The notes beneath the pieces were generated by a model. That model was not told the DNA's origin and did not search any database. It saw only the letters and a list, made by a program, of their open reading frames with translations. From the NCBI GenBank assembly GCA_977020255.1, contig CDROCS010000646.1, forward strand, positions 806,001 through 870,000: a DNA stretch of 64,000 nt, given 5' to 3'. The stretch is from Obrimoposthia wandeli (Eukaryota). This document shows positions 141 through 57,847 of the stretch, one piece after another. Position numbers and translations under genes: made by a program. The stretch's first letter is position 1. Every line of letters starts with the position of its first letter.

Positions 141-3100
141 CTATCTTAGACTATAGCGTCCATATGCGACGGATTTGTTTTTCTCAATCCAAACCCTTTT
201 ATCGTCATAACACCTTAACGCAATTTTATCATTATACATTGTAAATAATTGATGATTACGAGATAAAATACGTGTCTGACCGGCAGTTATAATTTCATCA
301 TCATCAACATAACACTTTATGTAATGCTCATGTCTGATTTCGGTTTGTTTAAGGGAGATACCCTTAGCCCTCATACTCGTTTTCAATGAGTAGCATTTAG
401 GTTTCAGAAATACCCATTCATCATAAAGCACTGTCCCCTTGCTTTCATCTTTAAACTTCCCAATCACATTTCGATGAGAATCGTTAAATAACTCATGTGT
501 GAGCGGGTAATTACTAGTATCTAACATCTGATCTTTAATCATTTGTTTTAAGAGGACATCTTTATCTATATGCTTACAATCTAAGAAAAACGAGTCTGTA
601 TCCATTGCAACTATGTTGATATCGCAATGATATTGCTTACGATACCGGTCAAGATCACTATACTGCAGTTGGTACATACGTAGTTTAGATAAGTCCAACA
701 CAGCTTGACCAATATATGATGGTCGATCCAGACAAATTTCTTTCTTTTGCATAAATAAAAGATTGAGATTGTCGGTTATTTGGGTATGCTTCTTAAACCA
801 AGGGCTTGAAACAAGTTTAGTAAACTGACGATCATTCTTGGTAAGACGGATATCTTTACGTTTTTTAAGATTTTCCACTGTCTTACCATATATTGAGTTA
901 TTTTTGAGTTTATAAAACTCTTTATCAAATGTAGTAGTACCCTCTGCCCGTTTCCGGCTATTGATATCAATATATGTTTTAAATATAGGAGCTTGATGAA
1001 ACTTTATTGCTCTATGCACTTGTTTAATTTCTGCACCCAGAAACAAGTAAAATTGTAGTAGTTGTGAGTGTATGATGTAATTATTTTTATCCTCATGGGT
1101 CATCAACAGCTTTGAAGCTTTTGAGCCGGGAGGGGTTTCTCTATTAGGCGCAATCGGTAAGTCATCAAGTTTATCATGAATACTGATGGGTATGCGTAAA
1201 TCAATTTCCAACAAGTATCCATGTTCTTTAAGACTTAAGTCCTGCATATTACCGTGAATATCCCTCTCAGTTATAAGCTCATATACCCATGTAAAATCTG
1301 TATGTGATAACGGTTGACTCCAGGCCCAGCCATATAGGTTATTTATGTCAATGTATAGGAGGAATGTTTCATCTGTTGTTTTAACGTAATGTTTATTGAT
1401 GAAAGTCATCCCTTCCCGTATCCCTGCCTCAAACATGTTATACATTTCGCGATCATGCAATAAATCCACATCATACTCTAATGTTTTTAATGCGCTAGCC
1501 CAACTGAGACCAGGGATACTAAAGAAATTGAGTGCCTCTAGATTATCATCATCCCTTATTTCTGTCTAAAGGCCTCAAAAACATCACATAACAGATACAC
1601 GTCAAGTTTCATATACTCAAGCATGTAGTCTTTAATAGTATTATACCCTAATACGTTCCACATCATTAGGGCTTCATTATATTGTTGATCAGTGACTCAA
1701 GAAGGAAACTCAGATTTAGCGGGTAACTGTGTCTCCATAAGCCTATCAACGCCACTAATATATTCATATGGAAATACCGCCTTACTTGTTGCAATATTAG
1801 GGTTTAGGTATTGTGTAGTATAAGGACAACTTGGCAAGTATGAAACTAAGGATTCAAGACTTGACGTTGTAAAAAGGTATGAATCAATGAATTTCAATGT
1901 CCCCCTCTTCATCTCTATACGGAGGGACATGAACTTTTCACTTGATTTAGGGATAATTGAAAAGGATTTACCTTTCAAGTCGGCATATTTTAAAATATGA
2001 TGTATGTCATAACCCATAAGGTTATGAAACACCACAGGTAAAACCGGTCTCTTTGCAAACTTGCGACTTAAATTGCATTTGTTGCATGCCGCACCCAAGT
2101 ATTTACCCGTGATATGATCATGATCTCTAACCATACGATCGTTTAATTTTTTACAAAGATAGCAATTAGTGCAATCTCTAAAGTTCAACATGTCATTATT
2201 AGTAAAAACCATAGGAACATTAATACTATTTACCCAAAAATCTGCCACTTCACCATTTATCAACTCAGTTAATTTATCTACAAAGTTTTTAGCACTCTGC
2301 AGACCGTAATAACTGAAATATTGTATTGAATTATTAGTGTTGTTTTTCAAAATCATCCCTATAGATATTGGTTTATGAATGTGTTTGAAAGTATTATGTG
2401 GCTCGAGTATTGACTCAAAGTCGGCATATACAACAAATGGTGGCGCAATAGATTTAGACCAGTCGGAAAACTGACACTTGATCTCTTTAGGCATTGTAAA
2501 CAAGGTTGTTAAATCTGTATTAATATTACAATGTACCCTGTGTTTGTCATATGAAATCGTGGTTCGAAATCCAAAAAGACATTTCGCACACCAAAAGAGA
2601 CGCACATTATATTTTTGAGTATTTAAAAGTCTATTCAGGTTTGTAATCCCTGTATAGTGATAATTACCGCTCTGTTCCAACAGCAACAAGTTCACTACTT
2701 TTTCGCACTGTTTAAGACTCGTTCTATAAATAACATTAACATATGGGTTTTTAAACACTAGATGACTACTATGATGCTCTACCTTTGTAGGTTTATAGGA
2801 TAATACTGTTATCGCTATATTATTGAGTTTTTCAAACGCCTTGATGCAGTATATCCTCATATGACCAGGCTCGCATATAAGTTCATTTAAATAACGTATT
2901 TAAAACACTGATCATCAGTATTATTTACGTTCACTATAGATAGTGTTTTAGCAAGCGCAACCGGGGTTTTATAAATGATGATCCTGCTACGTTTGAAAGT
3001 GCAGTAAATTTAAAAGATACCAACAGAATTTTAAATACTGACCATCCCGAACTCATATCCTTATAAATTTCAATTTTATTGTTGAGCTCAACTGTTCTTG

Positions 3101-3836
3101 TAGTGATAAAATCTTGTTCAAAAATATTTGCTTTACAGCTTACATGCCATGTTTTATGTTGACCCTCGTTATTGACAAATTCGGTTTCAACACCAAATTG
3201 TATTTTACAGGGACCAAACACATCTATACTGCTAGTAAGTTCAGTTAGCATAGTATCGTTAATGTATAGTTTAAGCATGTTTAATCCACTAACATCAAAA
3301 ACAAGATTTGATTGAATTGCACCTCCTATTTGATTGTTAAAAGTTAATGTATTATCTGAATTAATTGTAACAATATTATCACAGTCATCATCCGTAATAG
3401 TTAGGAATGAGTCGAAAAAATCATTTTCTGTTATAAACTCGTCCTGATCTATAAGTTCATCAATATTATTATTATTTAAGATTTCATTAGGGGTTAAAGG
3501 CTCAATAATTTCTACAACTTCAGGATAAGTATCAATTTCTACAACACTATCCGGTTCCCACGAGTCTACCACATCAAACTCTTCATTAAAATTAATAGTT
3601 TTTGCTATTTTATTGTTGTCTATTGTTGGTACTCTCATTACTTTACGTTTGTATGCTGACTTTTTAGACTTGAAATACGTCAGATGATCCTTATGATCAT
3701 TATAAAATGTTTGATAGTCAATACAATATAACACATCACAATGTGGACAAATAAAACCGCTTTTAAATTTATAATATTTAAGCATTACACTATGACATTC
3801 TATTCCATGATTAAAGTTTGTGCAATACTTGTACAA
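141..3836 (-). pseudogene. polB: Protein-primed family B DNA polymerase (pPolB), frameshifted into at least three ORFs (2934-3836, 1697-2860, 141-1469)
   Basis: PolB motifs YIDINNLYG, KLKNNSIYGK and MDTDSF; exonuclease YADFES and FHNLMGYD; Polinton Zn module CYLC..DHDH..G..C..CN; N-terminal SSGW motif. The 1470-1697 and 2860-2934 linkers read as PolB in shifted frames (e.g. YMKLDVYLLCDVFEAFR). Confidence 0.93.
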
Positions 3837-5303: not shown

Positions 5304-5627
5304 TTATATAGTTTGATCATACAACCATAAGATACATAGTGGACCGCAATTAGTAGTCAGTGGGTTTTGAGAACGAATTTTGTTGTAATATACATGTTTT
5401 CCTTGAGACTCTACATGCTTGATAAGTTTTCCCGGATAGTATACTCCAAGAGGGTCATACACATGTACAGAATTCCGTCTCACGAATAACGCAATCCAGT
5501 AATCTCCAGGAAGATTTGAGGTATGTGTATTGACAATATATCCACCAGGCGTTAATGTTGGGATTTTTTCCAACGGGTATACACCCTTAAATCGCGGTCC
5601 AAGCAGCAAACTAGTTATTTCATTCAC
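5304..5627 (-). CDS. Adenain-like cysteine protease; catalytic His appears replaced by Tyr
   Basis: NTHTSNLPGDYW...YDPLG...Q....CG. The paralog at 55852-56157 has GEHW at the same position. Confidence 0.88.
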   Translation of the reverse strand: MNEITSLLLGPRFKGVYPLEKIPTLTPGGYIVNTHTSNLPGDYWIALFVRRNSVHVYDPLGVYYPGKLIKHVESQGKHVYYNKIRSQNPLTTNCGPLCILWLYDQTI

Positions 5628-5681: not shown

Positions 5682-6905
5682 TCATACAATCACACGTCGG
5701 CCTTTAGTTATTTCAAACTCAGAATCAAAAATCCCGTAAATCAGTACGTTTGTTGGGACTGTTAATGACTTGTGAAACTTGATGTCAAGGCGTAAATTAC
5801 CCTGTTTTGCTAATTGGTTTTGCGTGATATCAAAGTCAGGGGCTAAAACAAACGTGAAAAATGGATATTTGGTTTTGAATTCATCCAGTGATACGCCATT
5901 GTTTATATTCTTATCGAAATTACCCATATTTCTAATGATAGATTGGACATATGCAAAGGTGGTTTCACCTGTTTCAAAGTTTGTACTGTAAGATTCGTTA
6001 AAATCACTGTTTCTAGCAAGACTGATAGTGTTAACATTAGAATGATCGAATGTTGAAGAGTCTGTAGCACCATTACCGATAAGTTTTTCACCTGCTTGCA
6101 ACGTAATCAACACAAATTTAGGCAATTGTTCATCATCAAACACTTGATCCTTGTAAAAACTCGTAGAACCGATGGCTAAGGTATGATACATTAGCTTTCT
6201 GCGAGTATAGGGATATACAGCACTCCTAGATTGAAGACCAATATTATGTCCCATTAAAACATCATTATCAACTCTGACTCTTCTGACTTTAAGTTTAGCT
6301 TCAATAAATGTGATTCGCGATGGAGTCGTTCCGTAGTTCAGACTAAACATAGATTTATTAGGTACAAGTCTTACCATGATAGACACACCAGGTAAGAGAT
6401 ACTTTGGTTGCTCAAAAATTTCAGATAGAATAGTGGTACACAAGTCAATTTCTTTTGAGCGAGCAGCCCAACCTTTACGATTATCTTCAGTATCATCATA
6501 ACCTATACTCGGCAAACAAGTGTCTTTAGTGTCTGTGCTATAGTTAAGTATGGTTTCAATCATAGCTTTTTGTGCATATTGAGGATGGGTTTCTACTACA
6601 GTATTATTCATTGTTATATCTATGCTTTTAAATAGGGAATGCATCAAGAAATTTGATGGGATCACATTATCTGTAACAGCTATTGCTGTACCATCAGTTT
6701 TCGTTACTTTAATTTTCACAAACAACAAGGTATCATTCAAATCTAAGTACTCAATATCTGAACCTTGGATTTTAAACAGAATCTCTGCTGTTCTTGTTCC
6801 AGTAATATTGTTTGTTGGATATATATCTTCAAAGCTACCATTATTTACAACTACCTGGGGCAAAGCTCGATCAAAAATACATAATTCAGATTTACCACAA
6901 GCCAT
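5682..6905 (-). CDS. Major capsid protein (double jelly-roll, Polinton type), open 407 aa
   Basis: Polinton MCP motifs KSELCIF, YLDLNDTLL and YLLPGV; located between the protease and the core-protein gene; paralog at 56231-57451. Confidence 0.88.
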   Translation of the reverse strand: MACGKSELCIFDRALPQVVVNNGSFEDIYPTNNITGTRTAEILFKIQGSDIEYLDLNDTLLFVKIKVTKTDGTAIAVTDNVIPSNFLMHSLFKSIDITMNNTVVETHPQYAQKAMIETILNYSTDTKDTCLPSIGYDDTEDNRKGWAARSKEIDLCTTILSEIFEQPKYLLPGVSIMVRLVPNKSMFSLNYGTTPSRITFIEAKLKVRRVRVDNDVLMGHNIGLQSRSAVYPYTRRKLMYHTLAIGSTSFYKDQVFDDEQLPKFVLITLQAGEKLIGNGATDSSTFDHSNVNTISLARNSDFNESYSTNFETGETTFAYVQSIIRNMGNFDKNINNGVSLDEFKTKYPFFTFVLAPDFDITQNQLAKQGNLRLDIKFHKSLTVPTNVLIYGIFDSEFEITKGRRVIV

Positions 6906-6907
6906 TA

Positions 6908-7330
6908 TTAAGCAAATATTGTACCTTGTTTTCTTCGTTTGTTTATACTAGATGCTTTCTTTCTACCACTACCCTCTTGCTTTTTTGTTTCGGGTTCAAC
7001 CGTTTGTGCTGCTTCACTTGCTTTACGTTTACGTCGATTTTTAATAATTTTAACAACTGTACCAAAAGCTTCCTTAGCATCCGGTATGGCTCCGACAACT
7101 TCCCCTAGTGCATGTTGTTTAAGCATTGGTAACACAGATTTGTTGTTCATTATTACATCTTGAACTGTTTTAACTCCAACACGGCCTAATCCTTTCAGTA
7201 TAGGGAATGCTAACCGCCCCAATGTTTTCAACCATCCCGAACCGTACTGTTTGCCTACAAAATATGGTAATTCACCACCTTGTTGAGGCCCACTAAATGT
7301 CTCAATTATATTCATAACTGTAATGGACAA
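6908..7330 (-). CDS. Basic virion core/cement-like protein with Q-x-G-x-G putative protease sites
   Basis: QQGGELPYFVGKQYGSGW followed by an amphipathic segment and a basic tail; conserved at 57635-57847. Confidence 0.7.
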   Translation of the reverse strand: MSITVMNIIETFSGPQQGGELPYFVGKQYGSGWLKTLGRLAFPILKGLGRVGVKTVQDVIMNNKSVLPMLKQHALGEVVGAIPDAKEAFGTVVKIIKNRRKRKASEAAQTVEPETKKQEGSGRKKASSINKRRKQGTIFA

Positions 7331-7351
7331 CTATTTTTGAATACAGATTGT

Positions 7352-8520
7352 TTATACCTGATCTATACAACGGACATGTATGGTAAGGGATACTTTTGCA
7401 TTGTTGGAAAAACTTATTGGAACACCTGCATCGTTTCTAATATTAATTTCAATGTTTGAGATTACATTTGATGCTAAAGGGATATACATGGGTCTGTATA
7501 TTGCGATATTAACCGTGTCTCCTGGTGCTTTATTTTTATCTAACCATATAGATTTTAATAAGGGTATCATTTGACCTCCAACGTTTACAGGTTCACACAG
7601 ACTAGAATGCAAGTACATGTGATCAAACTCGTAATTTAATCGAGGTTTACCCGACCCGTTGCCCGTAAATCGTGATTTATCTAACCCTAATACATACATT
7701 AAACGTTGATCAAATCCAATATGCTCAATTCCATTCTTTAATACAAATTTTATTAGCTTATCATTATCATCCATATAAAATCTTTTAAATATGACGTCAC
7801 ATTTAGATTTAATGTATGCTACTAATGCATTTACATTATTATTATTTAAATCTTCTGTAAATACAATTTTCTTGTTGTATGAACCGGTTTTATAATGCAT
7901 ATATTGTAAATTATGTGCACCACAATCAGGTCTGATAGACGTTGATCCTTGTAAAACTCCTTTATCATCAGACTCGAAACTTTCTGAAGTTAATGTATTG
8001 AAAATGAATCCTAATTCATTTTTAGCGTCAGCATCCATCTTGATATAGAATTTTTGTTGTTGACGGATTTTATTAGTACAACATTATCTTTTTTATCAAT
8101 ACCTACACCAACTGTGATTAAGGAAATAGAAAGCTTTGCAATCTTATCTTTAGACGAGACGGTGAGTTTTGATATTTTATTAATTGTCTTTTTAATAACT
8201 TTTGGTTCTGATTTATCACCATGCAATCGCGGTTCTTTCTTTTCTACTTCTACTTGAGTATGAATTACTGATAAAGATATTTGATCAGTCTGTTGATTGG
8301 AGAATTTAATAGAATAATTAATTTCACTGCCCTTATTTAAAATAACAGGAGTGTTTGTATACGTAAATTCAGTTAATGCCGCCTCCCTTTTACCATTTAA
8401 CGTAATTGGATTCTCCCAATCTACAGTGAATAATGAAGCCATATTATTAGGTTGAGTTTTCGGACAACTATTACTCGGTAAAATCATATAGAAGTCTCTA
8501 TCTGGCTTGCTTTGATCCAT
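7352..8520 (-). pseudogene. Minor capsid protein (penton, single jelly-roll) split into two overlapping ORFs (8011-8520, 7352-8038)
   Basis: N-terminal YMILPSNS...N....F and C-terminal MYLHSSLCEP..VG..IPLL...YIPL...I.NIEINIRND.G motifs typical of Polinton mCP. Confidence 0.78.
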
Positions 8521-9513
8521 GTTGATTCAGAATATCCATGCCACTTTACGAGATATTTAGGTTTTACGGCCTTTAGATTTTACGACTTCTTGGATACGGA
8601 AAAGTGTAGGTTTATCAATTACTTGTAATTCAGGTTCATAAAATTTCCCTGTTATTACATTACAGTCATCATCAACTATAGAGTACATTACAGGATTTGC
8701 ACGTTTGTCTATTTTCTCTATCCTAAACACTTCATCACTCCAATTCTGATCAAAGTTTTTAATAAAGGGTCTACCACTAAACTTTGATATCCGAACATAA
8801 TCACCAGTCTTATGTTTGGGTTTATTAACTTTATCGACTTGATTACGACTCAGCCAAATTTCCATTGCATTTTTATCATTAATATCGACAGGTCTCAATC
8901 CGTCTAAACCTCTATGCTTACTGTGATTGTATGAAGTCATTACTTTTGGTAAAACGTCAACCCATCTTTTAATGCCTTGTGCAATAAAATGTATTTTTAA
9001 TCGATCTCTCAATGTTCTATTAAACCTTTCAACTAGGGCAGCTTTGAATTGTGAAACTACAGAGTAATGTTCAATATTTAATTTTTTAAATAAACTACCT
9101 ACATTTTTGTTGTAAAACTCTTTACCCTTATCGGTTTGCACATGTATGGGGACAGTTTTATCAATCATTATACTTAGAGCAGCCTCTATATCCTTACCTG
9201 ATTTAGATTTTACAGGTAATGCACGCGCATACCTTGTAAACACGTCAATACATGTTAAAATATACTTGTTACCATCATTGATACTTGCATATGGTATCAT
9301 TTTCATCAAATCGGCCTGCCATAAATCGTTAGGACCGCTTCTTCTGTATGCTCGAGTCGGGAACTTCCGCTTCATTGGCTTGTTTAGACTGTATGCTAGC
9401 TGATTGCTCAGCCATTTCTGAGTTTTCTTTTGACTCGATTGACTTTTTAATGATAGTTTGCCAATGCCGCTGAACCCAGCTGCGTTTTCGGGATCGTACC
9501 TTATCGTTTCCAT
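8484..9513 (-). CDS. int: Retroviral-type DDE integrase; C-terminal chromodomain reached only through a frameshift near 8557
   Basis: WQADL, QTDKGKEF and VERFNRTL. The shifted frame reads KYLVKWHGYSESTWI, matching the chromodomain of the element-3 paralog. Confidence 0.92.
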
Positions 9514-9894: not shown

Positions 9895-9925
9895 ATTTAA
9901 TGAATTAAACTATTTGCAATATTGT

Positions 9926-10243
9926 TTATAGTTTAATCCATTTACCAACTAGTTTATTTACACGCTTTTTATCCGACTTCTTAACCGACTTTCCAACTGC
10001 TTTCTTAACAGGTTTCTTCTTCTTCTTTAATGGTTTCTTTTTTACAGGTTTTCTCTTTACTGTCTTTACCGATTTCTTTAATGATTCATCGACTACTTTA
10101 CGCTGATGAAGCACTGATTTAATAAGATTTTTAATATGAGCATTCTTCTTTAGCATCAATTTGTTATCATTAGCGTGTAATTTATCACCCGGTCTCCATT
10201 TAGGTCCAACTCCACTAGGCATTGTTTCTTTCATAAATGACAT
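9926..10243 (-). CDS. Lysine-rich basic protein, probable DNA-condensing core protein
   Basis: 105-aa ORF with KKPVKK-type repeats inside the structural gene cluster. Confidence 0.55.
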   Translation of the reverse strand: MSFMKETMPSGVGPKWRPGDKLHANDNKLMLKKNAHIKNLIKSVLHQRKVVDESLKKSVKTVKRKPVKKKPLKKKKKPVKKAVGKSVKKSDKKRVNKLVGKWIKL

Positions 10244-10245
10244 GA

Positions 10246-10350
10246 TTAACAGGTAGATAGGCTTTTCTTTTGTTTATATACAAAATCATTATTGAAAATA
10301 TCGGTTCTCACGCGTAAATCGTCTGGACATTCCTGTGTAAAATCTAAAAA
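10246..10350 (-). pseudogene. C-terminal fragment of the A32-like packaging ATPase
   Basis: Translates FLDFTQECPDDLRVRTDIFNN, matching FLNFTQSCPDDLRIVTDIFN of the element-3 ATPase. Confidence 0.85.
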
Positions 10351-10379
10351 CAGTCTTATTTGTTGTAATTAAAGATAAT
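10351..10379 (+). repeat. Left 29-nt terminal direct repeat
   Basis: Exact match to 13086-13114; contains ATTAAA. Confidence 0.95.
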
Positions 10380-10415
10380 CTTTTCTAAATTTTGGAAAAT
10401 TATCTAATTTCTTGA

Positions 10416-11237
10416 CAAGGATACCACGAAGAGGAGATACCAGATAATCAAGATACTCACACTTGTGCGAGTATTTGTACAGCCCTCAACACGTCGCAGG
10501 TCAAATCCTATCAAGAAGACGCAGAAGACGGTCTCGATCTTTTCCACGACTCGTTCGCTTCAATAAAAACAATACCAAAGCCATTGTCTTGGTCCGAGAT
10601 AACTGACGATCTAGAAGAAGATTTCAGCAAAGCAGAGTTAAATTTTGAAAAGACGGAGAGGTACTATTTAAGATCAAGGTCGGTAGATTTCGAAAAATCA
10701 ATTCAAAAAGCTCGTATGCAAGAGGATGCCGAACCAACCTTACGGGACATCATGCTCAGGCTCGATCGCATCGAAACTGAACAGAGAGCAAAAGCCAGTG
10801 TACCACTCCGACAATATGACTTGCCACGCGCCGAAACGCCGACCTAACGCAAGCAAGAGCTCCTGGAAGGAGATAACCGAACAGAGCTTAGCAAGCTCCT
10901 CCTCGAGAAGGATAGAAGATCGTGGCATGAGTTCGAGTCTCTGCTGCGTGTCCACGATCTGCTCAAGCTCGGCGACTACTTCGCCGTCGAAGAACACCTC
11001 GCCGAGCGAGCAGCAATGCTCTTCAGTTCCGTCACCATCGGGTGGGCTGCAACAGAGGCCAGAGCGTCTAATCTCGCACGCATCACGGACATATCCCCAG
11101 AAGAGAACTCTCGTTATCAGGCCAGGAAAGCAGCTGCCGCTGCCAAATCTCGACCTTTCCCACGTGGTCGAGGTAACTTCTCGCGCCGAGGCCTTGGACG
11201 CCCGCCGTTTGCTAGAGGCGCTGGCCTCCCACAGTGA
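10416..11237 (+). pseudogene. ORF1 (capsid/core- or Gag-like), one in-frame TAA at 10845-10847, Arg/Gly-rich C-terminus
   Basis: ORFs 10584-10847 and 11016-11237 share one frame, which is open from 10416 except for the single stop. It ends RPFPRGRGNFSRRGLGRPP. No ATG was found at the 5' end. Confidence 0.6.
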
Positions 11238-12903
11238 CCCATTCTACGTTCACTGGTGGCGAGATTATATGCTAGTCAGTATAATGTCGGCAGATGTCTT
11301 CAATAGACAACCTTTACCAATCCTTACTCGGGATATAATTGATGACTATTTCAATACCAATGCCATTACGCAACCACAAGCTGGGGATGGAAACAACATC
11401 TTGGAAGTCACAGGAGAAACAGAAATTGAAACGAGAAACGTCATGAACAATGACTCAAGCGGGTGGATAAACTTCCACGAAATCCGAAAAGTTAAAATGG
11501 CCCAAGACAAGCTCCAACAAGATTACTTTGAAAGCATGCCTTCGCAAACTCTCCAAATGCCAGAGGATTATAGTGACGTCGACCTAGACGGAAGGATGGA
11601 TATGCTGGCAACTAAGGGTTATGCACCCTTTGCCTCGATTAAAGCATCAAGACAAAGAAAGAGATTAAAAGTCCCAAATGACGAGAAGCAACACATCAAC
11701 GCATGTGTTCATGCTCTGCTCAAAGCCGGCATCATTGAGAAATCAACAAAAGGACCATTTTGCTCACAGGTGCGTATGGTACCTAAAGCCAACTCAAGTC
11801 TCAGAAGATTAATAGTGGATTTCAAGCACCTCACTCCACATTTGCCGCAGCTTTTCATGAAGATTCCGAATTTAGCCAACAGGCTACAGACAATTCCAAA
11901 TGATAGGCTTGCGATCAGAATTGATCTAAAAGGGGCCTTCTATCAGATTAAGATAAGGCAGGCGGCCAGGCACCTCACAAACTTTTGGAATGAGGATTGT
12001 TATTATCGTTTTACACGATTGCCTATGGGACTTCGCCAGAGTCCGGCTATTCTACAGTGGACTATCACAAGAATCCTGCAGCAGCTACAAGAAAAGTGGC
12101 CAGTTGATTTCGCACATGTCCACATCGATGATATCCTCATCGTGGCAAAACCTGAAGCAGCTATTTGGAATGAAGTCTCTAATTTCTTTAAAAAATGGGG
12201 CTTGCAAATAAATTGGAAGAAGTCACAGCTTACACCAATTTCCAAGATAGAATACTGCGGCATGCTCATTGATCTCAAGAAGCAAGAGGTCAGCATCAGC
12301 AAGGAAAAGTGGCACACTGCCGATGAAATAATCAATCAGGATCAATTTTCAGATGACGCAATTGGATATTTAAATTACGTAAGTAATGTTTTGAAATGGC
12401 CATATGTGGCAAATTATGTGCGATCAGATCTGAGAAAGTTGTGCTATTATAATCTAAAGAATTATGCGGCCACATGGAGTTGGAAAAAACAGATGGGACA
12501 AATTTGGGCAACTGATGCTACAAAGTCCACAATTGCCGTTACAAAAACGAGGCCATTCAAAATCGAGCTCACTGCCAAACTCCAGGAGGAGAATATTTAC
12601 TTGCAGGAGGCAAGAGCAGTGTTTATGGCTATGTGGAAAGCCTCAAGAGGAGATACCATCCTTTGTGACAATCTGGCTCTAGTATGGAGCATCAGAAACA
12701 GAAGAATCCCAGCAAAAGTCCAGCACTGGTGGACATTGATAGCAGTCCAAATGATGGCAACCATTAAGAAAATCAAAGTCCAATTCGTGCGAACGGAGCA
12801 CAATCCTGCCGACGCGCCAACAAGGTCGGAGGAAACGAGATCCAGATGGACGGAAGACTACGGAGTGCTGCTTTCGCTGACAATGCATCAAGCGGTGACG
12901 TGA
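10726..12903 (+). CDS. pol: Polymerase: reverse transcriptase plus RNase H, 725-codon open frame overlapping ORF1
   Basis: RT motifs RRLIVDF, IDLKGAFYQI, LPMGLRQSP, HIDD, GLQINWKKS and EYCGMLID; RNase H motifs ATDAT, LQEARA, CDN and NPADAPTR. Confidence 0.93.
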   Translation: MPNQPYGTSCSGSIASKLNREQKPVYHSDNMTCHAPKRRPNASKSSWKEITEQSLASSSSRRIEDRGMSSSLCCVSTICSSSATTSPSKNTSPSEQQCSSVPSPSGGLQQRPERLISHASRTYPQKRTLVIRPGKQLPLPNLDLSHVVEVTSRAEALDARRLLEALASHSDPFYVHWWRDYMLVSIMSADVFNRQPLPILTRDIIDDYFNTNAITQPQAGDGNNILEVTGETEIETRNVMNNDSSGWINFHEIRKVKMAQDKLQQDYFESMPSQTLQMPEDYSDVDLDGRMDMLATKGYAPFASIKASRQRKRLKVPNDEKQHINACVHALLKAGIIEKSTKGPFCSQVRMVPKANSSLRRLIVDFKHLTPHLPQLFMKIPNLANRLQTIPNDRLAIRIDLKGAFYQIKIRQAARHLTNFWNEDCYYRFTRLPMGLRQSPAILQWTITRILQQLQEKWPVDFAHVHIDDILIVAKPEAAIWNEVSNFFKKWGLQINWKKSQLTPISKIEYCGMLIDLKKQEVSISKEKWHTADEIINQDQFSDDAIGYLNYVSNVLKWPYVANYVRSDLRKLCYYNLKNYAATWSWKKQMGQIWATDATKSTIAVTKTRPFKIELTAKLQEENIYLQEARAVFMAMWKASRGDTILCDNLALVWSIRNRRIPAKVQHWWTLIAVQMMATIKKIKVQFVRTEHNPADAPTRSEETRSRWTEDYGVLLSLTMHQAVT

Positions 12904-12983
12904 TCCACTAATGTGTCTCCCATTTTTATGTCTCTTACGTCTTTTTATGGCTAAAGTTTTTTAGTTGTCTGGTATCTTTGGTT

Positions 12984-13044
12984 CACTCAGTCACATCACT
13001 TCTTGCCTACCACCTTCGGGTTCTAGGCGTGATGTGATTGGGTG
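12984..13044 (+). other. Epsilon-like bulged stem-loop (predicted RNA structure)
   Basis: Manual pairing: 16-bp lower stem (two G-U), 5-nt UUCUU bulge, 5-bp stem, 2x2 internal loop, 3-bp stem, C(UUCG)G tetraloop. Confidence 0.75.
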
Positions 13045-13051
13045 GCCTTTT

Positions 13052-13091
13052 TATATATAAGCTGGCATAAAATATAGAAATTTGCCAGTCT
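13052..13091 (+). promoter_or_regulatory. TATA box followed ~33 nt later by an initiator-like CCAGTC at the start of the right repeat
   Basis: TATATATAAG at 13052-13061; CAGTCT begins at 13086. Confidence 0.5.
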
Positions 13092-13114
13092 TATTTGTTG
13101 TAATTAAAGATAAT
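13086..13114 (+). repeat. Right 29-nt terminal direct repeat
   Basis: Exact match to 10351-10379. Confidence 0.95.
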
Positions 13115-13225
13115 TTGATTAAACATGTTTTTATTTTGAAGTAATTTAGTTACAAAATGTGTTTTCCCACTCCCACTAGGTCCTACTATTTGGTAAACCG
13201 CGTTATTTTTAAGTTTTATCATCAT
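13115..13225 (-). pseudogene. N-terminal fragment of the A32-like packaging ATPase (Walker A)
   Basis: Translates MMIKLKNNAVYQIVGPSGSGKTHFVTKLL. Confidence 0.88.
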
Positions 13226-13255
13226 CAATAATAATAAATCAAAAGAAACGATTGT

Positions 13256-13518
13256 TTATAAACGTTTTATTAATATATACAACAACAGAGAATTAAAAAT
13301 TGACGCAGAAAAGGTTATATACATCATGTTTGAACGATTAATTTGAACGAATTTTTCAAAATCTTTATTCCGTTTGATATCTCTATAGACATGGGTGCAA
13401 ACAATTTCCTTTATATTATTACGAGAAAGTTCATCAAAACTAGAAAAGTATTGAACTCCATTTATTGTTCCGTTTATAATTTCCTCGACTGCATCATCAA
13501 CTAATTTATCGTTTTCAT
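13256..13518 (-). pseudogene. Small ORF with a C-terminal hydrophobic helix; start codon out of frame
   Basis: Frame open ~85 codons ending YITFSASIFNSLLLYILIKRL*; the nearest ATG (13516-13518) is one base out of frame. Confidence 0.4.
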
Positions 13519-14440: not shown

Positions 14441-14482
14441 TTCAAATAATGTAAGAATAAAAATTCAACTAAAATTTATTGT

Positions 14483-14975
14483 TTATATCAAAAGTAAAAT
14501 ATCAGTTATTATCAAAGTTACATCAAAGTTATAATCCAAATCCTTGAGACCGAGTATGACCACTTTTCCGCTTGCAAATATGTTGACGCGCAGAGGATTG
14601 TGTTTTGTAAACCTCAAAGTAGGAAACAACTCAGGTTCGAACATGCATGCAGCTCCACACTTTTGAGACAACTTGTATAGGTTCACCTTCTTACCTAAAT
14701 CGACAGTAACCGTTACTGATTGAATACGATCAATCTTTATTCTAAATGGACACTTGAGCATAGTTGTAGTAATAGGTTTCTTGCAACCCATTATCCTGCA
14801 TGCTCCTAATAATTAACTAACTAACTAACTAACATAAAAAAATACCTGAACGGAAGATTATAAGGGTATAATCCTTACATATGTGCACGTACTGACATGG
14901 TTTCCCGGCTTTGAAGGGTAAGTGACTGATGTCTCCTTTAACTTTACTTTTATAATTAATATTTGCAAGATTCAT
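14483..14975 (-). CDS. TBP: Minimal TATA-binding-protein homologue, spliced (intron 14806-14845), 150 aa
   Basis: IIFRSG-ACRIMG, IQSVTVTVDLG..VNL and FEPELFPTL..NIFASGKVVILG match both TBP repeats; removing the 40-nt GT-AG intron restores the frame. Confidence 0.88.
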
Positions 14976-15101: not shown

Positions 15102-15755
15102 ATGAACTCTAAACAAACTAAATCTCTTAAGTTTGAGAAGCCACCACCACCAACAAGGCTTACAGACACAGATGTGGATACCGATGATGATGTAGTTTTA
15201 ATATCAAAACCAAAGAAGCAAACTATGACAAGCAACAACAACAAACAATCCAAGACTATCAAGATTGAGAAGCAAGCAACAAATGAGGATCTCTTTATTG
15301 ATGATATAGTTTCTACACCCAAACATAAGAAACCGTTCATCAACAATAGACCATCAGGTGTAATATTTGAGTATAACGATTTGAAGTACACCAAGCCGGT
15401 TATGTTTTATAACTGGCAAATGAATTTTTTGAAGACTCCAATCATATATGGATTCATATTTCCGGTGGCTCTGAATAAGTCAAAATACGATTTCAAGATA
15501 CATAGATTAAATCCGTCAGATATTGATGATCTTAACACAACTTTCGCGTCGATGCATCTCAACATTATAGTTGGGAATCATAAAATAATTCGAGCTGATC
15601 CTAATCTCTTCAAGCGAGATCACGACTTTAATGTTGACAATATGGGAACTGGACTCAAGTGGATGATCGTCATTTCAATACAGGGATACAAAATCAATTG
15701 TACAGGTCTTCATAAACCAATCTGGAAAATTACTGATGGACAAGTTCGCTTATAA
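15102..15755 (+). CDS. Conserved terminal gene of unknown function (here 'ORF-T'), transcribed toward the element end
   Basis: 217-aa ORF; homologs at 32497-32877 and 54903-55289 share YxFxxPV and WxxxIxIQGxxxxxGLxxPIWKI. Confidence 0.75.
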   Translation: MNSKQTKSLKFEKPPPPTRLTDTDVDTDDDVVLISKPKKQTMTSNNNKQSKTIKIEKQATNEDLFIDDIVSTPKHKKPFINNRPSGVIFEYNDLKYTKPVMFYNWQMNFLKTPIIYGFIFPVALNKSKYDFKIHRLNPSDIDDLNTTFASMHLNIIVGNHKIIRADPNLFKRDHDFNVDNMGTGLKWMIVISIQGYKINCTGLHKPIWKITDGQVRL

Positions 15756-15854
15756 TTGTGCTAATATATATTTATGTTACTTTGCTTTCTTCATTATATA
15801 ATCATGTATAAACATAGACTCCTACTATAAACAATAACGTTTCTTAAGATAAAA

Positions 15855-15911
15855 ACTGCGATAGCTGTCTGGTTATGCGGGGCAGTCTAACTCCTGGAAT
15901 GAGGTCGCAGT
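15855..15911 (+). other. Structured motif duplicated in inverted orientation at 4325-4380
   Basis: 50/56 identity by manual alignment; folds into a three-way junction. Confidence 0.65.
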
Positions 15912-15974
15912 ACTAAGTAAATTAAATAGTTGCAAATAAAAACTTGGGACGGTCAATTGTGTTTAATTTCAAAA

Positions 15975-16160
15975 TGTTATTTTTAATTTTTTAATTTCCA
16001 TATTTAATTTTTGAATTAAAATTAAAATTTTTTAATTTCCATATTTGATTTTTTAATTAATATTTAATTTTTTAATTAATATTTAATTTTTTAATTTCCA
16101 TATTTAATTTTTTAATTTTGAATTAAAATTTAGAATTTTAGAATTTTTGAATTTTTGAAC
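15975..16160. repeat. Subterminal AT-rich tandem repeats
   Basis: Reiterated TTTAATTTTTTAATTTCCATA-like units. Confidence 0.75.
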
Positions 16161-16223
16161 TATATACTTAATATTAACCTACATAATCGTAAATGACGCA
16201 TAAAACCAATCAAATTTCAAAAC

Positions 16224-16389
16224 GTAAAGTGTCGGTTCTAAAACAATAGCACACAAAGCCCGCCCCCCAGAACAAGGCACAAGGAACAAAGCACATCTGT
16301 ATGACTAAGCGAATTCCAGATGTCCTTTGTTCCTTGTGCCTTGTTCGGGGGGGGCTTTGTTTGCTATTGTTTTAGAACCGACACTTTAC
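16224..16389. repeat. Long imperfect palindrome (~75-bp arms, 17-nt loop) near the element-1 end
   Basis: GTAAAGTGTCGGTTCTAAAACAATAGC...CACATCTG paired with CAGATGT...GCTATTGTTTTAGAACCGACACTTTAC. Confidence 0.9.
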
Positions 16390-17079
16390 ACTTCTGTCGG
16401 TCATTCGTGATTGTCTGTTAACTAATGGAACATTTTAAAAAATACTTTTACTTTGAATTTGTATTGCATTTCATTTTTGGATGTAGTATTATTGTTGAGA
16501 ATCAATGTAGTGTAACATGTGGCGTTCAAGAGCAAAAACACTGCATGAGGTAATCGCTGGCATTTGTGTTTTGTAGCATACGTTTGTATTAGCTTGTTCA
16601 GAATTTCCGCTCCTGATTTTGTGGAGAATTAAAATTGGATAAAAATTACTTTTGCCTTCAAATAGGTTTTGTTCCAACTGAGGGTGAGATGACAGACGAA
16701 GAACGGGTGACATTTTCTAGTAGAATGAACATAGCGTATTGTTGTTTGTGTAGAAGTGAACTTTTTCACTGTACTTCTTGCTGCATGTGTGATTTCACGT
16801 TGGTTCGATCTTATGGTCAATTTTGAGAAAGCAAACGCTGAGACAGTTTCAGTGATACAATGAAGTTATCAGCAGTCACATTTGGTCCAGTATCAAGAAA
16901 AGGCATAGCTAGCTTTATTGCCTTACAAATTGAGGTCGTTGCAGCTTTCTCCTGAGCAGATTGAGTGCCATTACCGATGTTGTTGTCCAAATATGTTCAC
17001 CCAATATATTTTAATTTTAAAAAATTATTCGGTTTTGTGGGCCTGCATTATCTGAAGCCTACATGGCTATGAAGTTCGA

Positions 17080-30703: not shown

Positions 30704-31190
30704 CTAATTTGTTTTTATACCATATTTTAGCACATAATATTCAAAGCACAGATATTCATAACTTAAAGACTTAACACCAAATATTATAATTTTCCCGCTC
30801 TCAAAAATGTTCACACATAGTGGATTGTACTTGACGTACCGAAGTCCCGGGAAGATTTCTGGCTCGTAAACAGCATCCGAACCCATACTTTTGCTCATCT
30901 TGTTTAGGTTTATTGGTTTTTCCAAATTGGTAGAGACTGTTTGATTGGATTCTTTCGAGTTTAATATCAAAAGGAAGAGTGCTTTCATCCAGCACTGTTT
31001 TACAGCCCATTATACTGCATGTCCCTAAATTATATTAATATTTAAATGTAAAATAAATTACCAGATTTGAAAATGATAATAGTATAATCTTCACACTTGA
31101 ATCGATTCTGATGAAGCTTCGAAGTCCGAAATGGTAAGTGTTGAATGTTACTTACAACCATTCCCTTGTAATTAATATTCGCAATTTGAT
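30704..31190 (-). pseudogene. TBP: TBP homologue, spliced (intron 31025-31061), 1-nt frameshift near 30940
   Basis: ANINYKG...IIFKSG/TCSIMGCK...RIQS, then in a shifted frame YEPEIFPGL..NIFESGKIIIFG. Confidence 0.82.
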
Positions 31191-31282: not shown

Positions 31283-32065
31283 TTAATTCCCTATGCTATG
31301 AAATCTAATCTTTCTTACTCGTTTAATGATAATTGTCTTGCAATATGGACATGGAATAAAACGATCTGAACATTTAATACATGTGTTTAAGTGTTCATAT
31401 GGTAAAAATGCCACGGAAATCATATCTGTCATGCAAATAACACATTCGGGATTTGGTAAGAGGTATTCGAGATAATTTATAGCATGCCTTGGTTCAGATT
31501 TTATTTCTAAAGATCTTAAATCCGTTATAAACTCATATATATATAATCATATTTATTACCGAATATTTTAAACCTATTAACTAAAACAGATTTGATTCTA
31601 TCATGGCTATAATCACGTTACAGCAAAACTATTTCACGAGTTTCCATATGAGCATCAATTTCATCATTACTAATATGATATTCAAAAATACATCCATTCT
31701 TGATTCCCATACTAGATGCTTTACAATCTCGGGTATGAAAGATTCTTTCAGGCATACTATCAATAAACTCAAGTTGATGTACTGCTTTCTGACAGAAACA
31801 ACATCTATAAGAATCACTCCAAATATAGACATACGGGAAAATCAATAATGTAAAGACAGAACAAAAAACACAGCCAGTAAACACAATTTACGTTATCCCT
31901 TGAATCATCGTGTTTATAAAATCCTGCCTTTTCTAAAACTCTCTTATCTGCTAAACCAGTAAACTTTCTTCGTAATGATTCTAATCTTTTTTTCAGATAT
32001 CATATATTCATTTCTTCTTGAAATCTTATAAAAAACGTTGTCATCTAATGGTGAGTTCTCCATTT
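31283..32065 (-). pseudogene. iap: IAP pseudogene (BIR remnants plus RING)
   Basis: Manual translation gives RLESL...KAGFYKHDDSRDNVNCVY, then DRIKSVL and CVIC..VAFLPYEH..TC..C...CPYC. Confidence 0.8.
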
Positions 32066-32496
32066 TGCGAAACATAATGTTCAATAAATTTAGTAGTCAT
32101 AACAAAATGAAATGAGGATATTGTCTAGCTTATATAGTAAGTGAAAATCTATTTTTAGTAACATTGCTAGTATATACAAGAAATGTCATGTGATGTCTTT
32201 GCCTTAAGAATAAAGCAGCATAAACAATATTTTGATAATGATTTTATTTAAAATGAATAATCAAAATAATCAAAATAATCAAAGTAGAGCTAGCACATAT
32301 ATAGGTTCTGGTAGTAATTTATATGCTAATATGAATTATAATAGAAATAATCATAGATAAATATTAATCCATCGAGTCAAACAATAACAAGTCCTACACG
32401 ACTAATACTAAGCGATTTTTTCTAAGAGAATATTAACCAATTAGAATCGAACTTTAGAGGATAAACAATTGAATATTTCAACTTATAATTGTAAAT

Positions 32497-32877
32497 ATGA
32501 ATTTTGAAAAGCTATATCAACCTATGCATAAATATTATGGATATGATATGTACTTTTTGAAGAAAGCTCATAACTATAATTTTATTTTTCCTGTTAACAT
32601 CATGCCGCTTAAATTTTATTTTGAAGTATCAAATTTGACTTCTGTGGAAAAAGAGAGAATCAATATTCTCTTGAATCAATTTGGAATCAACTATGAGCTT
32701 CAAGAAAACAAATTCTTAATCAATGGATCAACTGCCACTTTCAAGCAGGATAATGGAACAATATTCGATGGACCTCCTCCTAAATTAGAATGGATTCTCT
32801 CAATCAGAATTCAAGGATGCACTGGATTGGAAACTCCGATATATAAAATAATCAAAGCTGTTAGAGTTGATTTATAA
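32497..32877 (+). CDS. ORF-T homolog
   Basis: YNFIFPV and LEWILSIRIQGCTGLETPIYKI align with 15102-15755. Confidence 0.75.
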   Translation: MNFEKLYQPMHKYYGYDMYFLKKAHNYNFIFPVNIMPLKFYFEVSNLTSVEKERINILLNQFGINYELQENKFLINGSTATFKQDNGTIFDGPPPKLEWILSIRIQGCTGLETPIYKIIKAVRVDL

Positions 32878-54902: not shown

Positions 54903-55289
54903 TTATTTACTAATTCCATCAAGTATTTTCCAAATAGGAGTCAATCCACTAGGTCCGATCTTGTAACCTTGTATCTTCATATTGATATTCTATTGTAATC
55001 CAGTTGGGCATTCAATTAATATTGATTCATCTATATTTCTGAAAATGGCTTCATCTCCTTTAATAAAGAATTTGGGTTCTTGTAGACAATACTCACAATT
55101 AATTTTTGTAAGCATTTTATTTATTCTTTCAACATCAGCTTTAATAATATTGGAAATGAGGTAATTGAATTTCTGTTTTTCCACCGATACTGGATATCTG
55201 AAATTATAATGGATGGGGTTCTTGAGAAAATAAATCTCGTAACCATGAAAAGTATGAACACGTTGATATAAATCGGTTATGGCTTGCAT
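54903..55289 (-). pseudogene. ORF-T homolog with a premature TAG at a conserved Trp position
   Basis: TGLQ*NINMKIQGYKIGPSGLTPIWKILDG versus TGLKWMIVISIQGYKINCTGLHKPIWKITDG in element 1. Confidence 0.78.
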
Positions 55290-55851
55290 TTTTATGAAAA
55301 TTTATGAAATTTCTTATCGTTTATATATAAAATCGATGTAGATATTAACCAATGAGAGTTAAATGGTGTGTTTATAGAACATTATTAATTATTCAAAACA
55401 AATTATTTATAGAATATTCTAGTTAAATAATTATATTATATTTGTTTTATCGCATCAATGAATTAATTATCGAAAAAAAAGTGTTTGTTTAATCGATTTT
55501 ATCAGTAAATCATAAATTCAAATTTAATCATGGAAGAAGAAACAATTCAAAGAAACCGCAACAGAATTCTGGATCTCGAAGACTTATCCTTTGAAGAGAG
55601 TAGGTAGAAGGATGGAGTCTAAGCCACTTGACCCCCCCCTAAAGGGTGTCACACCATAAGGGTGTCTTGCCATACCATAAGGGTATATGTTGCCTCACCT
55701 CCGGTATATCATTCATTTTGATATCATTCACATACATTATACATAATTCCTTTGGAATATATTCTCCATTATTATCAATAAAACATTCTAAATCAATAAA
55801 AGCCATTTGAAATAATAAAATGAAATACTATAATGATATATTTGTTTATAC

Positions 55852-56157
55852 TTAAAATGATTTGTGTTGAAGTTTCAACCATAAAAGACTCAGAGGTCCG
55901 CAGTTTTTAGTTAATGGATTCTGACATTTAACTCGATTATAGTAGACTGGAATATTTTCTTTTTCAAGTGTAGACACCAACTTTGCAGGATAATAGAATC
56001 CAAAAGGATCAAACACTCGAATCTCGAATCTGTCAACGAATATTGCTATCCAATGTTCGCCTGGTAGATTTGAAGTATGAGTATTGATAATGTAACCTCC
56101 GGGTTTTAATGATGGAATTTTATCCAATGAATATACTCCATTAAATTTGTTATTCAA
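55852..56157 (-). CDS. Adenain-like cysteine protease, catalytic triad intact
   Basis: NLPGEHW, FDPFG and Q....CG. Confidence 0.9.
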   Translation of the reverse strand: MNNKFNGVYSLDKIPSLKPGGYIINTHTSNLPGEHWIAIFVDRFEIRVFDPFGFYYPAKLVSTLEKENIPVYYNRVKCQNPLTKNCGPLSLLWLKLQHKSF

Positions 56158-56230
56158 TAATATTTTTCCGGATTTATGAATTTCTAAAGTACTAATTTAA
56201 ATAAAGAATATAATATACAATAAGCTTACT

Positions 56231-57451
56231 TCATACAATCACAGTTTTATTTTTCGTAATCTGAATTTCGGAATCAAATATTCCGTAAATCTAAACACTT
56301 GTTGGAACGGTCAAAGGAGAATTAAATCTAATTTCAAGTCTTAAATTACCAGTTTTAGGCACTTGAGTAGTGTTTATATCAAAATCTGGTGCTAATAGAA
56401 AAGTGAAAATCGAACTTCCTGATTTAAAATCAGAAAATCTGATACCATTATTCACGTTTTTATCTAAAAATATTCATATTTCGAATAATTGACTGCATAT
56501 ATGCTAATGAAAAATTGTTATTATCTAGATTATAAGTTTCTCGATAATCTGTATTTCTAGCTAATGATATTGTTGAAACATTAAATGTATTGAACGTAGA
56601 AGATTTAACTTTGTATTCCTTACCACCCTGAGGTGTATCTTTGAAAGCAATCAAAATGAACTTGGGTAAACGATAGTCTCCGAATATTTGATCTTTATTA
56701 AGTTCCAAAGAACCCTGAGGAATTGAATATGTTACTAACTGAGTTTTTCTAATTGGGTAAACTGCATTCTGACTTTGCAAACCTAACTGATGTCCAATCA
56801 TTACTGAAGAATCAACTTTTACTCTTCTAACATACAATCTAGCATCTAGAATTTGAATAATTGGTTTTGAAGTTTCTGAATAGAGCGAAAAATTATGCTG
56901 ATTTCTCATAAATCTCAAATGAACATTAATCCCTGGAATCAAATATTTTGGTTGATCAAAGAAATCTAATCTAATTGAATTACACAATGAAAATATTTTA
57001 GATTCACTAATCCATTGTTTACGATTTTCTGCATCATCATCATACCCGGAACATTCAAGGTTAGTATACTTGGTATCACTACTAAAATTCAAAAGAGTAT
57101 CGAATATAGCCTTATGAGTATACGTTCCATTTCCTCCTTCAACCTTTACATTATTAAGTGTTAGAATAACATCTCTAAACAAAGTTTGAAACATGTAATT
57201 CTCTGGAGTTACATCGCTATCTTCATTAAATCAGTACCATCTTCATTTACAACTTTTAATTTAATATTTAACAAAGTATCATTCAAATCCAGATAATCTT
57301 CTTCAGATGCATGAATATTAAATTCTATGTCATTTAAATTTTTTCCAGTAATTGAATTGATTGGAAATATTTCTTCAAAACTTGAATTTTCAATCACTAC
57401 TTGAGGTAGTGGTCTATCGAAAATACACAATTCAGATTTTATACTAGTCAT
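56231..57451 (-). pseudogene. Major capsid protein, frameshifted near 57200 and 56460
   Basis: KSELCIFDRPLPQVV and YLIPGINV; homologous to 5682-6905 across three frames. Confidence 0.88.
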
Positions 57452-57847
57452 TTTGGAAAATAGTACCTTTAAGACGTTTGTTTATACTATTTAAATTATT
57501 TCTTTTACGTTTAAGACCCTTTCCATTTTGTTCAACACAATTTGCGACTTTATTTAAACTCTCAACAGCATTATTTTTTAATTTTGGAATCAAAGTTTTG
57601 ACTTCTTTGATTGTATTTTCTTTGAGAGATGAAATTATGTTTTTGGATTTGTTAACGCAGTTCCTACCGTTTCACCAATTACATTGGCAGCACTTGTAGC
57701 TGCTGATAAACCAACTTTTTTAATAAATGGAATAGCTAATCTAGAAATAGTTTGATACCAACCAGATCCATATTGTTTACCAATGAAATAGGGAAGTTCA
57801 CCGCCCTGTTGACTTTTGCTATAAAATTTTATAATTGATGTATTCAT
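57452..57847 (-). pseudogene. Core/cement-like protein, frameshifted
   Basis: QQGGELPYFIGKQYGSGW; paralog of 6908-7330. Confidence 0.7.

Follow-up and report, generated by a model that had tools for sequence, protein, structure and literature searches.

Polintons in the genome of Obrimoposthia wandeli carry a gene for a reduced and strongly altered TATA-binding protein (TBP). We propose, with a probability of about 60%, that this protein is a functional, Polinton-specific derivative of TBP that is made early and drives the late genes of the element through the host's RNA polymerase II (Pol II). A shared TATAAACA box precedes the packaging and capsid genes, which suggests that Polintons activate their own late genes by redirecting host RNA polymerase. 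The original prediction had raised the idea of a viral factor with altered specificity, and the support that we found for it is circumstantial: a polar DNA-binding face and a sense-strand box that is lacking in a class of Polintons without TBP. What is new here is the intron position shared by three families, the loss of helices together with a re-faced saddle, the selection on the box at the DNA level, and a TBP-less control within the same host.

Three TBP-like genes in the window

By the window, we mean the whole 64,000-nt stretch of DNA that we analyzed. TBP-like genes had been predicted at three places in it. All three have TBP-like coding sequence on the minus strand, and Pfam matches for copies 1 and 3 bear this out. 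The first prediction, a gene at 14483-14975, was right about the coding sequence but not about its being a single open reading frame (ORF). Instead, copy 1 (family 1) has two exons on the minus strand. Exon 1 (14846..14975) runs for 130 nt from the ATG, and exon 2 (14483..14805) holds the rest of repeat 1 and the whole of repeat 2. The 40-nt GT..AG segment between them (14806..14845, minus strand) appears from the DNA to be a phase 1 intron, which interrupts the codon for the Gly that follows the Phe of repeat 1. The gene that was called at 30704-31190 (copy 2, family 2) is also TBP-like, but it is not intact. Its exon 1 (31062..31190, minus strand) has decayed, its exon 2 (30704..31024, minus strand) has a frameshift near 30933-30940, and a putative 37-nt GT..AG intron (31025..31061, minus strand) interrupts the codon at which copy 1 is also split, but its sequence is different. 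Copy 3 (family 3; 61324..61764, minus strand) is an intact and intronless ORF of 146 amino acids, and its best sequence matches in the PDB are TBP.

The TBP model from Pfam matches copy 3 with E = 2.5e-12 (residues 67-130, one repeat) and the exon-2 ORF of copy 1 with E = 2.2e-12 (one repeat); the score of 46.9 bits, against a curated cut-off of 22.9, comes from repeat 2 only. As predicted, the copies are clearly divergent: copies 1 and 3 are 51% identical (145 codons), and the pieces of copy 2 are 38-51% identical to the other copies. All three have matches elsewhere in the 1.35-Gb genome, and our counts are lower bounds. For copy 3, all 150 of the matches that were scored are 98-100% identical and have no internal stop. 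For copies 1 and 2, the scored matches numbered 40 of 40 each. A Pfam search of the genome revealed at least two further TBP-like families.

The elements that carry the gene

Each copy had been placed in a different Polinton. This is correct for copies 1 and 3, which lie in recognizable Polintons, but copy 2 lies in a relic. On the minus strand, element 1 encodes a protein-primed PolB (141..3785, in three frameshifted ORFs), homology to an adenain-like protease (5322..5597, by comparison with the protease of L128, which matches Peptidase_C5 with E = 1.1e-07), a putative major capsid protein (5682..6905, 407 amino acids), a putative minor capsid protein (7352..8520, two ORFs), an rve integrase (8557..9513), a packaging ATPase (10270..13207, in two pieces at 13121-13207 and 10270-10353), and IAP-like RING (13541-13897) and BIR (13898-14440) ORFs. 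We take ORF 5682-6905 to be the major capsid protein from Maverick capsid motifs plus synteny; the minor capsid assignment is by position and homology. The putative major capsid proteins had no Pfam match for the double jelly-roll capsid, and the putative minor capsid ORFs at 7352-8520 had no Pfam match above the cut-off. Divergent from the TBP gene is an OB-fold, SSB-like gene (15102..15755, plus strand), which is the usual neighbor of TBP. The Z scores of its fold are middling (7.2 to ASFV CP312R, 7.1 to the Enc34 SSB, and 6.3 to T7 gp2.5). Element 1 is bounded by terminal inverted repeats (92% over 586 nt, from a comparison with L134). The right one is at 15815..16395, and its partner is outside the window, some 430-990 nt ahead of the first position.

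A few other features of these elements are worth recording. A retroelement at 10354-13120 (with a reverse transcriptase ORF at 10726-12903, plus strand) interrupts the ATPase of element 1, and the ATPase is uninterrupted in L137, which is a sister of this element. Within the terminal repeat, nested inverted repeats at 16224-16389 give a long hairpin-like end. The IAP-like BIR and RING cassette adjoins TBP in families 1 and 2 (13541-14440 and 31286-31990 in the window; also L137, L140, L149, and L195). Another TBP-bearing element encodes a ubiquitin-conjugating E2 enzyme (L121:222-719) with TATAAAC about 80 nt upstream. Finally, L150, a contig with a TBP-bearing Polinton that also encodes ATPase, integrase, capsid, protease, and PolB, is found in a record titled as a bacterial metagenome-assembled genome (MAG) and is probably mis-binned.

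The relic around copy 2 (31286..32877) is about 2.4 kb with the TBP gene and has only TBP, RING (31286-31540, minus strand), BIR (31877-31990, minus strand), and SSB-like (32497-32877, plus strand) genes. We found no homology to capsid, ATPase, integrase, or PolB near copy 2, so the relic lacks the Polinton gene set, but at other sites in this genome, relatives of copy 2 do belong to Polinton modules (L149). Element 3 has a minus-strand module (54912..61121) of SSB-like, protease, major and minor capsid, integrase, and ATPase genes, several of them frameshifted, and a plus-strand PolB (62324..64000) that continues past the edge of the window. No terminal inverted repeats of element 3 were found in the stretches that we compared. 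Both elements 1 and 3 have the Polinton gene set (PolB, rve integrase, ATPase, and adenain), with PolB and ATPase matches in Pfam that are weak. Among the 27 and 13 ORFs of the elements that were scanned, we found no RNA polymerase gene, and in the same scan, which was not exhaustive, we saw no viral TFIIB partner.

A predicted TBP saddle with a different DNA face

The TBP fold was confirmed by a structure model, which was built from an alignment of 118 sequences and has a pLDDT of 96.3. The first 44 matches from Foldseek are all TBP, and VIA-align superposes 146 of 146 residues on residues 66-238 of yeast TBP (Z = 14.2, rmsd 2.3 A). A profile match to TBP (99.4% over 129 columns) covers both repeats. 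In the structural alignment, identity to cellular TBP is about 23%. Residues 1-75 of the model are strands and loops with no helix, and repeat 2 is complete. The spacing from N69 to F116 shrinks from 47 to about 36 residues, and the linker between the repeats from 32 to about 19. As modeled, the protein is a full bilobed TBP saddle minus the helices of the N-lobe.

Below we use yeast numbering, whose register is from sequence and profile alignments rather than a residue-level structural alignment and may be off by one residue. DNA-contact residues are as tabulated in the accessible text of PMC12529657. Three of the four intercalating Phe are retained, and the equivalents of N69, F116, F190, P191, and F207 are present. 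Repeat 2 keeps both Phe (in 117 and 118 of 118 members) and the acidic E-P-E stirrup (E186 in 113, P in 118, and E188 in 117 of the 118 sequences), as had been predicted. The Asn of the second QN is indeed replaced by Ser (N159>S in 115/118). Repeat 1 was thought to be shortened and to keep only the Phe of its IF. The spacing is reduced, the IF Phe is present in 117/118, and Pro takes the position of the first Phe, F99 (117/118), but the first strand of repeat 1 and its conserved Asn (116/118) are kept, and 146 residues superpose.

Across the DNA-binding face, by alignment, conserved polar substitutions replace hydrophobic residues that face the bases. The changes on this face are V71>N (115 of 118), V122>R (117), T124>M (118), I194>R (116), V203>C (118), and L205>N (118). 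In the accessible text of PMC1636458, I194, V203, and L205 are the altered-specificity positions of TBPm3, and the N-lobe of TBP contacts the 3' half of the TATA box. When the viral TBP was modeled together with a TFIIB core that is 86% identical to a host exon, without an alignment or DNA, the complex scored 0.12 against a mark of 0.34, which counts neither for nor against binding.

A separate family under purifying selection

Relatives of these proteins are common in public data. A profile search gave 440 matches with E up to 1e-10, which probably include cellular TBPs, and the best 120 of these are 39-56% identical. In a library clustered at 50%, there were 52 matches with E up to 1e-30. 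Proteins in the family have 136-192 amino acids (median 149). There is a Polinton-type neighbor at 21 of 28 metagenome loci (8 of these have ATPase, integrase, capsid, or PolB), and the other 7 are contigs of just 1.1-2.1 kb. The most constant neighbor is the SSB-like gene (16/28). A scan of viral_contigs for TBP found 5 matches, all distant, and a scan of genome_contigs found 30 loci, which were one close relative (L150) and 29 weak matches, mostly from archaeal records.

In an unrooted tree of 92 rows, the 69 rows of the family lie on one side of a branch with 100/98 support, and eukaryotic, archaeal, and sampled viral TBPs fall on the other side. (Copy 2, L150, L102, which is nearly a duplicate of L101, and truncated proteins were left out of this tree.) The TBPs that we sampled from IMG/VR and the NCLDV-like TBPs are outside the family. 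We presume that the NCLDV-like label is right for the four proteins that carry it, which is a guess. Genomic context was available for a minority of the rows, namely some of the short forms and none of the 21 long forms. The phylogeny had been proposed as a check on whether the copies are retrocopies of the host's gene, and they are not: they group with the Polinton-associated family, and forcing the window copies and the host TBPs into one clade was rejected (p-AU = 4e-56, in a subset of 44 rows). The ratio dN/dS was 0.13-0.21 in the 4 unsaturated pairs, out of 9 that involved families from this genome. For pairs from metagenomes, most values were 0.13-0.29; four pairs had 0.38-0.52, and a single pair of nearly identical sequences had 1.2. 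So the viral TBPs are a separate clade under purifying selection.

Some longer members of 160-204 amino acids (P0214, P0216, P0221, P0224, P0228-P0231, P0233, P0250, P0253, and P0256) have a repeat-1 spacing that is nearly that of cellular TBPs. These may be intermediates that preceded the loss of the helices.

A probable short intron in the TBP gene

In family 1, both exon lengths are constant in 20 of 20 loci, and the intron segment varies from 39 to 45 nt. The GT..AG is kept in 19 of these loci, and the reading frame across the exons is open in 18 (of the other two, one could not be parsed and one lacks the GT). These 20 loci are the best full-length matches, a choice that favors few indels, and this leaves unexplained why the indels fall in the intron segment alone. 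The segment in family 2 is 36-38 nt in 20 loci, of which 14 have the GT as well as the AG. In a third family of this genome (L081, L083, L086, L091, L094, L145, and L146), that codon is again interrupted by a GT..AG segment, about 38 nt long, that resembles an intron. We infer that the TBP intron is of the spliceosomal type, is 37-45 nt long, and is conserved in position across these three families.

Families 3 and 4 of this genome have no intron at this codon, and neither do the 19 metagenome or MAG loci (out of 29) that could be resolved. The host's TBP also has no intron at the codon; an intronless host TBP has CAG|GT there, which is a proto-splice site. The host introns that we saw are about as short as the viral ones (47 nt in one of the host's TBP genes). 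Among the host's own genes, two divergent TBP genes lie head to head (L071/L072, G000 C238), TRF-like genes without introns occupy two further contigs (L074/L075), and there are several Brf1-like copies.

Short introns may occur in other genes of these elements. The SSB-like gene has an apparent short GT..AG intron in metagenome copies (L107:1745-1790, L114:2690-2740, and L115:1440-1485), so introns seem to occur in putative early genes. In the window, an AT-rich GT..AG segment (4669-4705) lies directly before the ATG of ORF 3800-4669 and is possibly another intron.

A box upstream of the capsid-module genes

We considered the 100 nt before each of 76 genes of the capsid module in 15 elements, a set that comprises ATPase, integrase, capsid, and protease genes as well as small ORFs. 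These windows are not independent: some of the elements are nearly identical, and the positions are homologous. The most common 7-mer was ATAAACA, in 56 of 76 windows. TATAAAC, which was named beforehand rather than found blind, was in 44 of 76, as compared to a mean of 2.3 and a maximum of 7 in 500 runs of a Markov model. The box is typically 33-48 nt upstream of the ATG. Its orientation is strict: the antisense box was in 0/76 windows, and in seven whole modules there were 64 sense boxes and 1 antisense. Canonical TATAAAA was in just 4/76, none of them at 30-55 nt, and GTAAACA was in none of the 76. The box was not found before any of 21 TBP genes, and TATAAAC was before 2 of 35 TBP, PolB, pre-PolB, and SSB-like genes.

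The TATAAAC boxes in element 1 are on the minus strand. They are at 14481..14487 (47 nt before the ATG of the BIR gene and overlapping the TBP stop codon), 13254..13260 (38 nt before the packaging ATPase), 10272..10278 (before a Lys-rich ORF at 9926-10243), 9924..9930 (36 nt before ORF 9565-9894), 7350..7356 (41 nt before ORF 6908-7315), and 6941..6947 (42 nt ahead of the gene for the putative major capsid protein and within the coding sequence of the ORF upstream). In element 3, also on the minus strand, they are at 61190..61196 (about 54 nt before the ATPase), 57885..57891 (before the homolog of ORF 6908), and 57480..57486 (35 nt ahead of the gene for the putative major capsid protein).

Where the box overlaps a coding sequence, we can ask how the Ile-Asn pairs are encoded. 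Near gene ends, 14 of 21 Ile-Asn pairs are ATA AAC, compared with 6 of 46 within the bodies of genes (p = 2e-5). This bias implies that selection is acting on the DNA.

The pattern has exceptions. Only 5 of the 9 integrase genes and 2 of the 6 protease genes have the box, and it does precede 3 of 7 SSB-like genes and 2 of 3 BIR genes. Some boxes have no listed ATG nearby downstream. Also, the first T is missing from 12 of 56 boxes, even though the Pro that is said to impose a T at the start of the TATA box (accessible text of PMC1636458) is present in 104 of 118 proteins.

Polintons without the TBP

A second class of Polintons in the same genome, with a PF21738 capsid and 365-nt terminal repeats (G000 C5437: L201, L196, and L197; related L180-L199), serves as a control. 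The box was in 1 of 59 windows from this class, versus 56 of 76 in the TBP-bearing elements. We found no match to TBP in 20 stretches of the second class. In 4 more stretches, the sole match belonged to an adjacent element of the TBP type, and the positive controls were detected. One copy was covered from one terminal repeat to the other and has no TBP. Several copies of this class are nested with TBP-bearing elements. This control is one lineage, with mostly 62-100% amino acid identity, and it differs from the TBP-bearing elements in many other genes. Searches of viral_contigs by capsid, ATPase, and integrase gave no relatives, and nor did the phage collection. A search of this genome with PF00770 had no match, and no positive control was detected in that search.

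How the viral TBP may act

The model that we favor has the following steps. Host Pol II would transcribe the TBP gene early and in the nucleus, as suggested by its spliceosomal-type intron in three families and by the absence of the box upstream. The viral TBP would then bind and bend TATAAACA, and the remodeled N-lobe would read its non-canonical 3' half (C at position 7). The EPE stirrup would recruit host TFIIB, and hence Pol II, and Pol II recruitment at the box would yield very short 5' leaders. Helices of the N-lobe of TBP provide surfaces used by TAF1, Brf1, TFIIA, and Mot1. Their loss would remove those surfaces, so the viral TBP would act outside of TFIID and TFIIIB. Because the copies in the window are integrated and partly decayed, these functions would belong to the active element. 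One observation does not fit: the invariant changes in the C-lobe sit above base pair 2, at which the box does not depart from the canonical sequence, and the model does not explain them.

A stronger claim is that a single re-faced TBP of 149 amino acids, which has shed its regulatory helices, reads TATAAACA and recruits TFIIB and Pol II with no viral partners, which would make it the smallest known viral transcription switch and would apply to a large clade of Polintons and adintoviruses. It would be a solution that is independent of the six-protein complex of herpesviruses, and direct evidence that Polintons have an early-to-late program, as true viruses do. We advance this tentatively, at slightly less than even odds.

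Other explanations

The box might instead be a weak TATA element for host TBP/TFIID or for some other factor, and the viral TBP might do something different at DNA. It could repress early or host promoters, for example, or it could bind the termini or the origin alongside the SSB-like protein. Taken jointly, we consider these ideas unlikely, but they are credible. The C(-25) variant of the adenovirus TATA box presumably reads TATAAAC. Cellular TBP was crystallized on that variant (according to the title of PDB entry 1qn3), so host TBP may serve the box. Also, the co-occurrence of the box and the TBP was seen against a single control lineage, and it is a replication gene, the SSB-like one, that is the most constant neighbor of the TBP. 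On the other hand, if host TBP were responsible, we would not expect TATAAAA to be so rare (and missing from 30-55 nt) while the C form dominates, and for a TBP variant, a C in the downstream half is generally disfavored (accessible text of PMC1636458). The TFIIB stirrup is conserved as strongly as the DNA face. That conservation would also suit a decoy, which the original prediction had offered as an option: the protein might sequester TFIIB or sit unproductively on host TATA boxes, and the loss of the N-lobe helices and of one Phe is consistent with this. But a sink for TFIIB has no need of near-invariant new residues across the concave face, it would not account for a sense-strand box at a fixed spacing, and shutting down Pol II would harm an element that has no RNA polymerase of its own (none was found in the 27 and 13 ORFs). 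So we consider a decoy improbable, and less likely than a factor with altered specificity.

It is also conceivable that the motif has nothing to do with TBP. Variants of the poly(A) signal include TATAAA, CATAAA, and GATAAA, and we take ATAAACA to match the forkhead consensus. Many boxes are near the stop codon of the upstream gene, and the box at L121 10011 has no listed gene downstream, so the box might be a 3'-end signal of the upstream gene or else a forkhead site. We give this little credence. The distance to the ATG clusters at 33-48 nt, while the distance to the nearest stop codon spans from about -280 to +360, and several boxes fall within the coding sequence of the gene upstream, at a depth of about 100 nt. 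In L130, the box before the ATPase is kept even though the upstream TBP gene is divergent. A forkhead site does not explain the strict sense orientation or why GTAAACA was in none of the 76 windows. Least probable of all, and in our view refuted, is that the genes are recent retrocopies of host TBP or neutral passengers. It is true that the window copies are integrated, that copy 2 is broken, and that the host has several TBP/TRF genes, some of them intronless. But the grouping with host TBP is rejected by the AU test, the 100/98 branch sets the family apart, dN/dS between lineages is well below 1, and host TBP has no intron at the viral intron codon. Nor would retrocopies have many public relatives at 39-56% identity, with Polinton-type neighbors at 21 of 28 metagenome loci.

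Relation to known systems

Like cellular TBP and TRF and archaeal TBP (PF00352), the viral protein is a two-lobed saddle with a YEPE(L/I)FP stirrup and with N69, F116, F190, P191, and F207. Unlike cellular TBP and TRF, it has about 149 amino acids, no helices in the N-lobe, Pro instead of F99, a polar face, and a clade of its own. Of the features of canonical TBPs, it lacks the two helices per repeat, the four Phe, and the grouping with eukaryotic and archaeal TBPs, and it keeps the acidic TFIIB-binding stirrup in repeat 2, as judged from its sequence.

One parallel is with the TBP mimics of beta- and gammaherpesviruses (ORF24 of KSHV and BcRF1 of EBV), which are also virus-encoded, come from nuclear viruses with no RNA polymerase, and have a polar face. 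They too are associated with a variant TATA box before structural genes, which is TATTWAA there and TATAAACA here, and this is a correlation only. According to the accessible text of PMC12529657, ORF24 has 752 amino acids, four Phe, a polar DNA face without the acidic TFIIB residues, and an N-terminal domain that binds Pol II, and it needs five viral partners. In contrast, the Polinton protein is a lone core of 149 amino acids with the stirrup, it does not have the multidomain architecture (Pol II-binding and C-terminal domains), and we identified no genes for partners. We view the likeness as an analogy: the viral TBP would work alike, in driving late genes through host Pol II, but it is not a member of that family. 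The TBP homologs of NCLDVs and the poxvirus factors VETF-l and VITF-3 (accessible text of PMC12917281) are also stage-specific viral factors with the TBP fold. Unlike the Polinton TBP, the poxvirus factors have expanded folds and serve a viral RNA polymerase (same source). Models in BFVD match our protein at E = 2.6e-08 and weaker.

The elements themselves resemble the adintoviruses, Polintons, and Mavericks described in the accessible text of Starrett et al. 2021 (PMC8502044), which share PolB, rve integrase, ATPase, adenain, a capsid module, terminal inverted repeats, and an IAP homolog. The original prediction did not recognize TBP as a standard Polinton gene. This holds in that we found no dedicated description of a Polinton TBP in the literature that we searched (figures, bioRxiv supplements, Repbase, and subscription journals may hold more), but a "TBP" label does exist: it is defined in the legend of Fig. 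5 of Starrett et al. for MELD viruses with adintovirus-like PolB. It is a single legend entry, in a section on non-animal datasets. The searched text of that paper has no analysis of the family, structure, intron, or promoter of TBP, and the words TBP and TATA do not occur in one of its supplementary files. Nor do they occur in PMC11161782, PMC11131425, 10.64898/2026.06.19.733378, or 10.1101/2023.08.22.554363. TATAAAC was absent from the best matches of our literature search.

Implications

How a Polinton times its capsid genes with neither an RNA polymerase nor a helper virus appears to be unaddressed in the papers that we searched. With both the factor and an 8-bp box defined, this timing becomes testable. 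If our reading is correct, elements that are usually treated as transposons would be more credible as having a real viral life cycle. More broadly, the viral TBP would be a natural and minimal TBP of altered specificity, which would reveal which parts of TBP are dispensable, and together with its box it might be of use as an orthogonal TBP-promoter pair.
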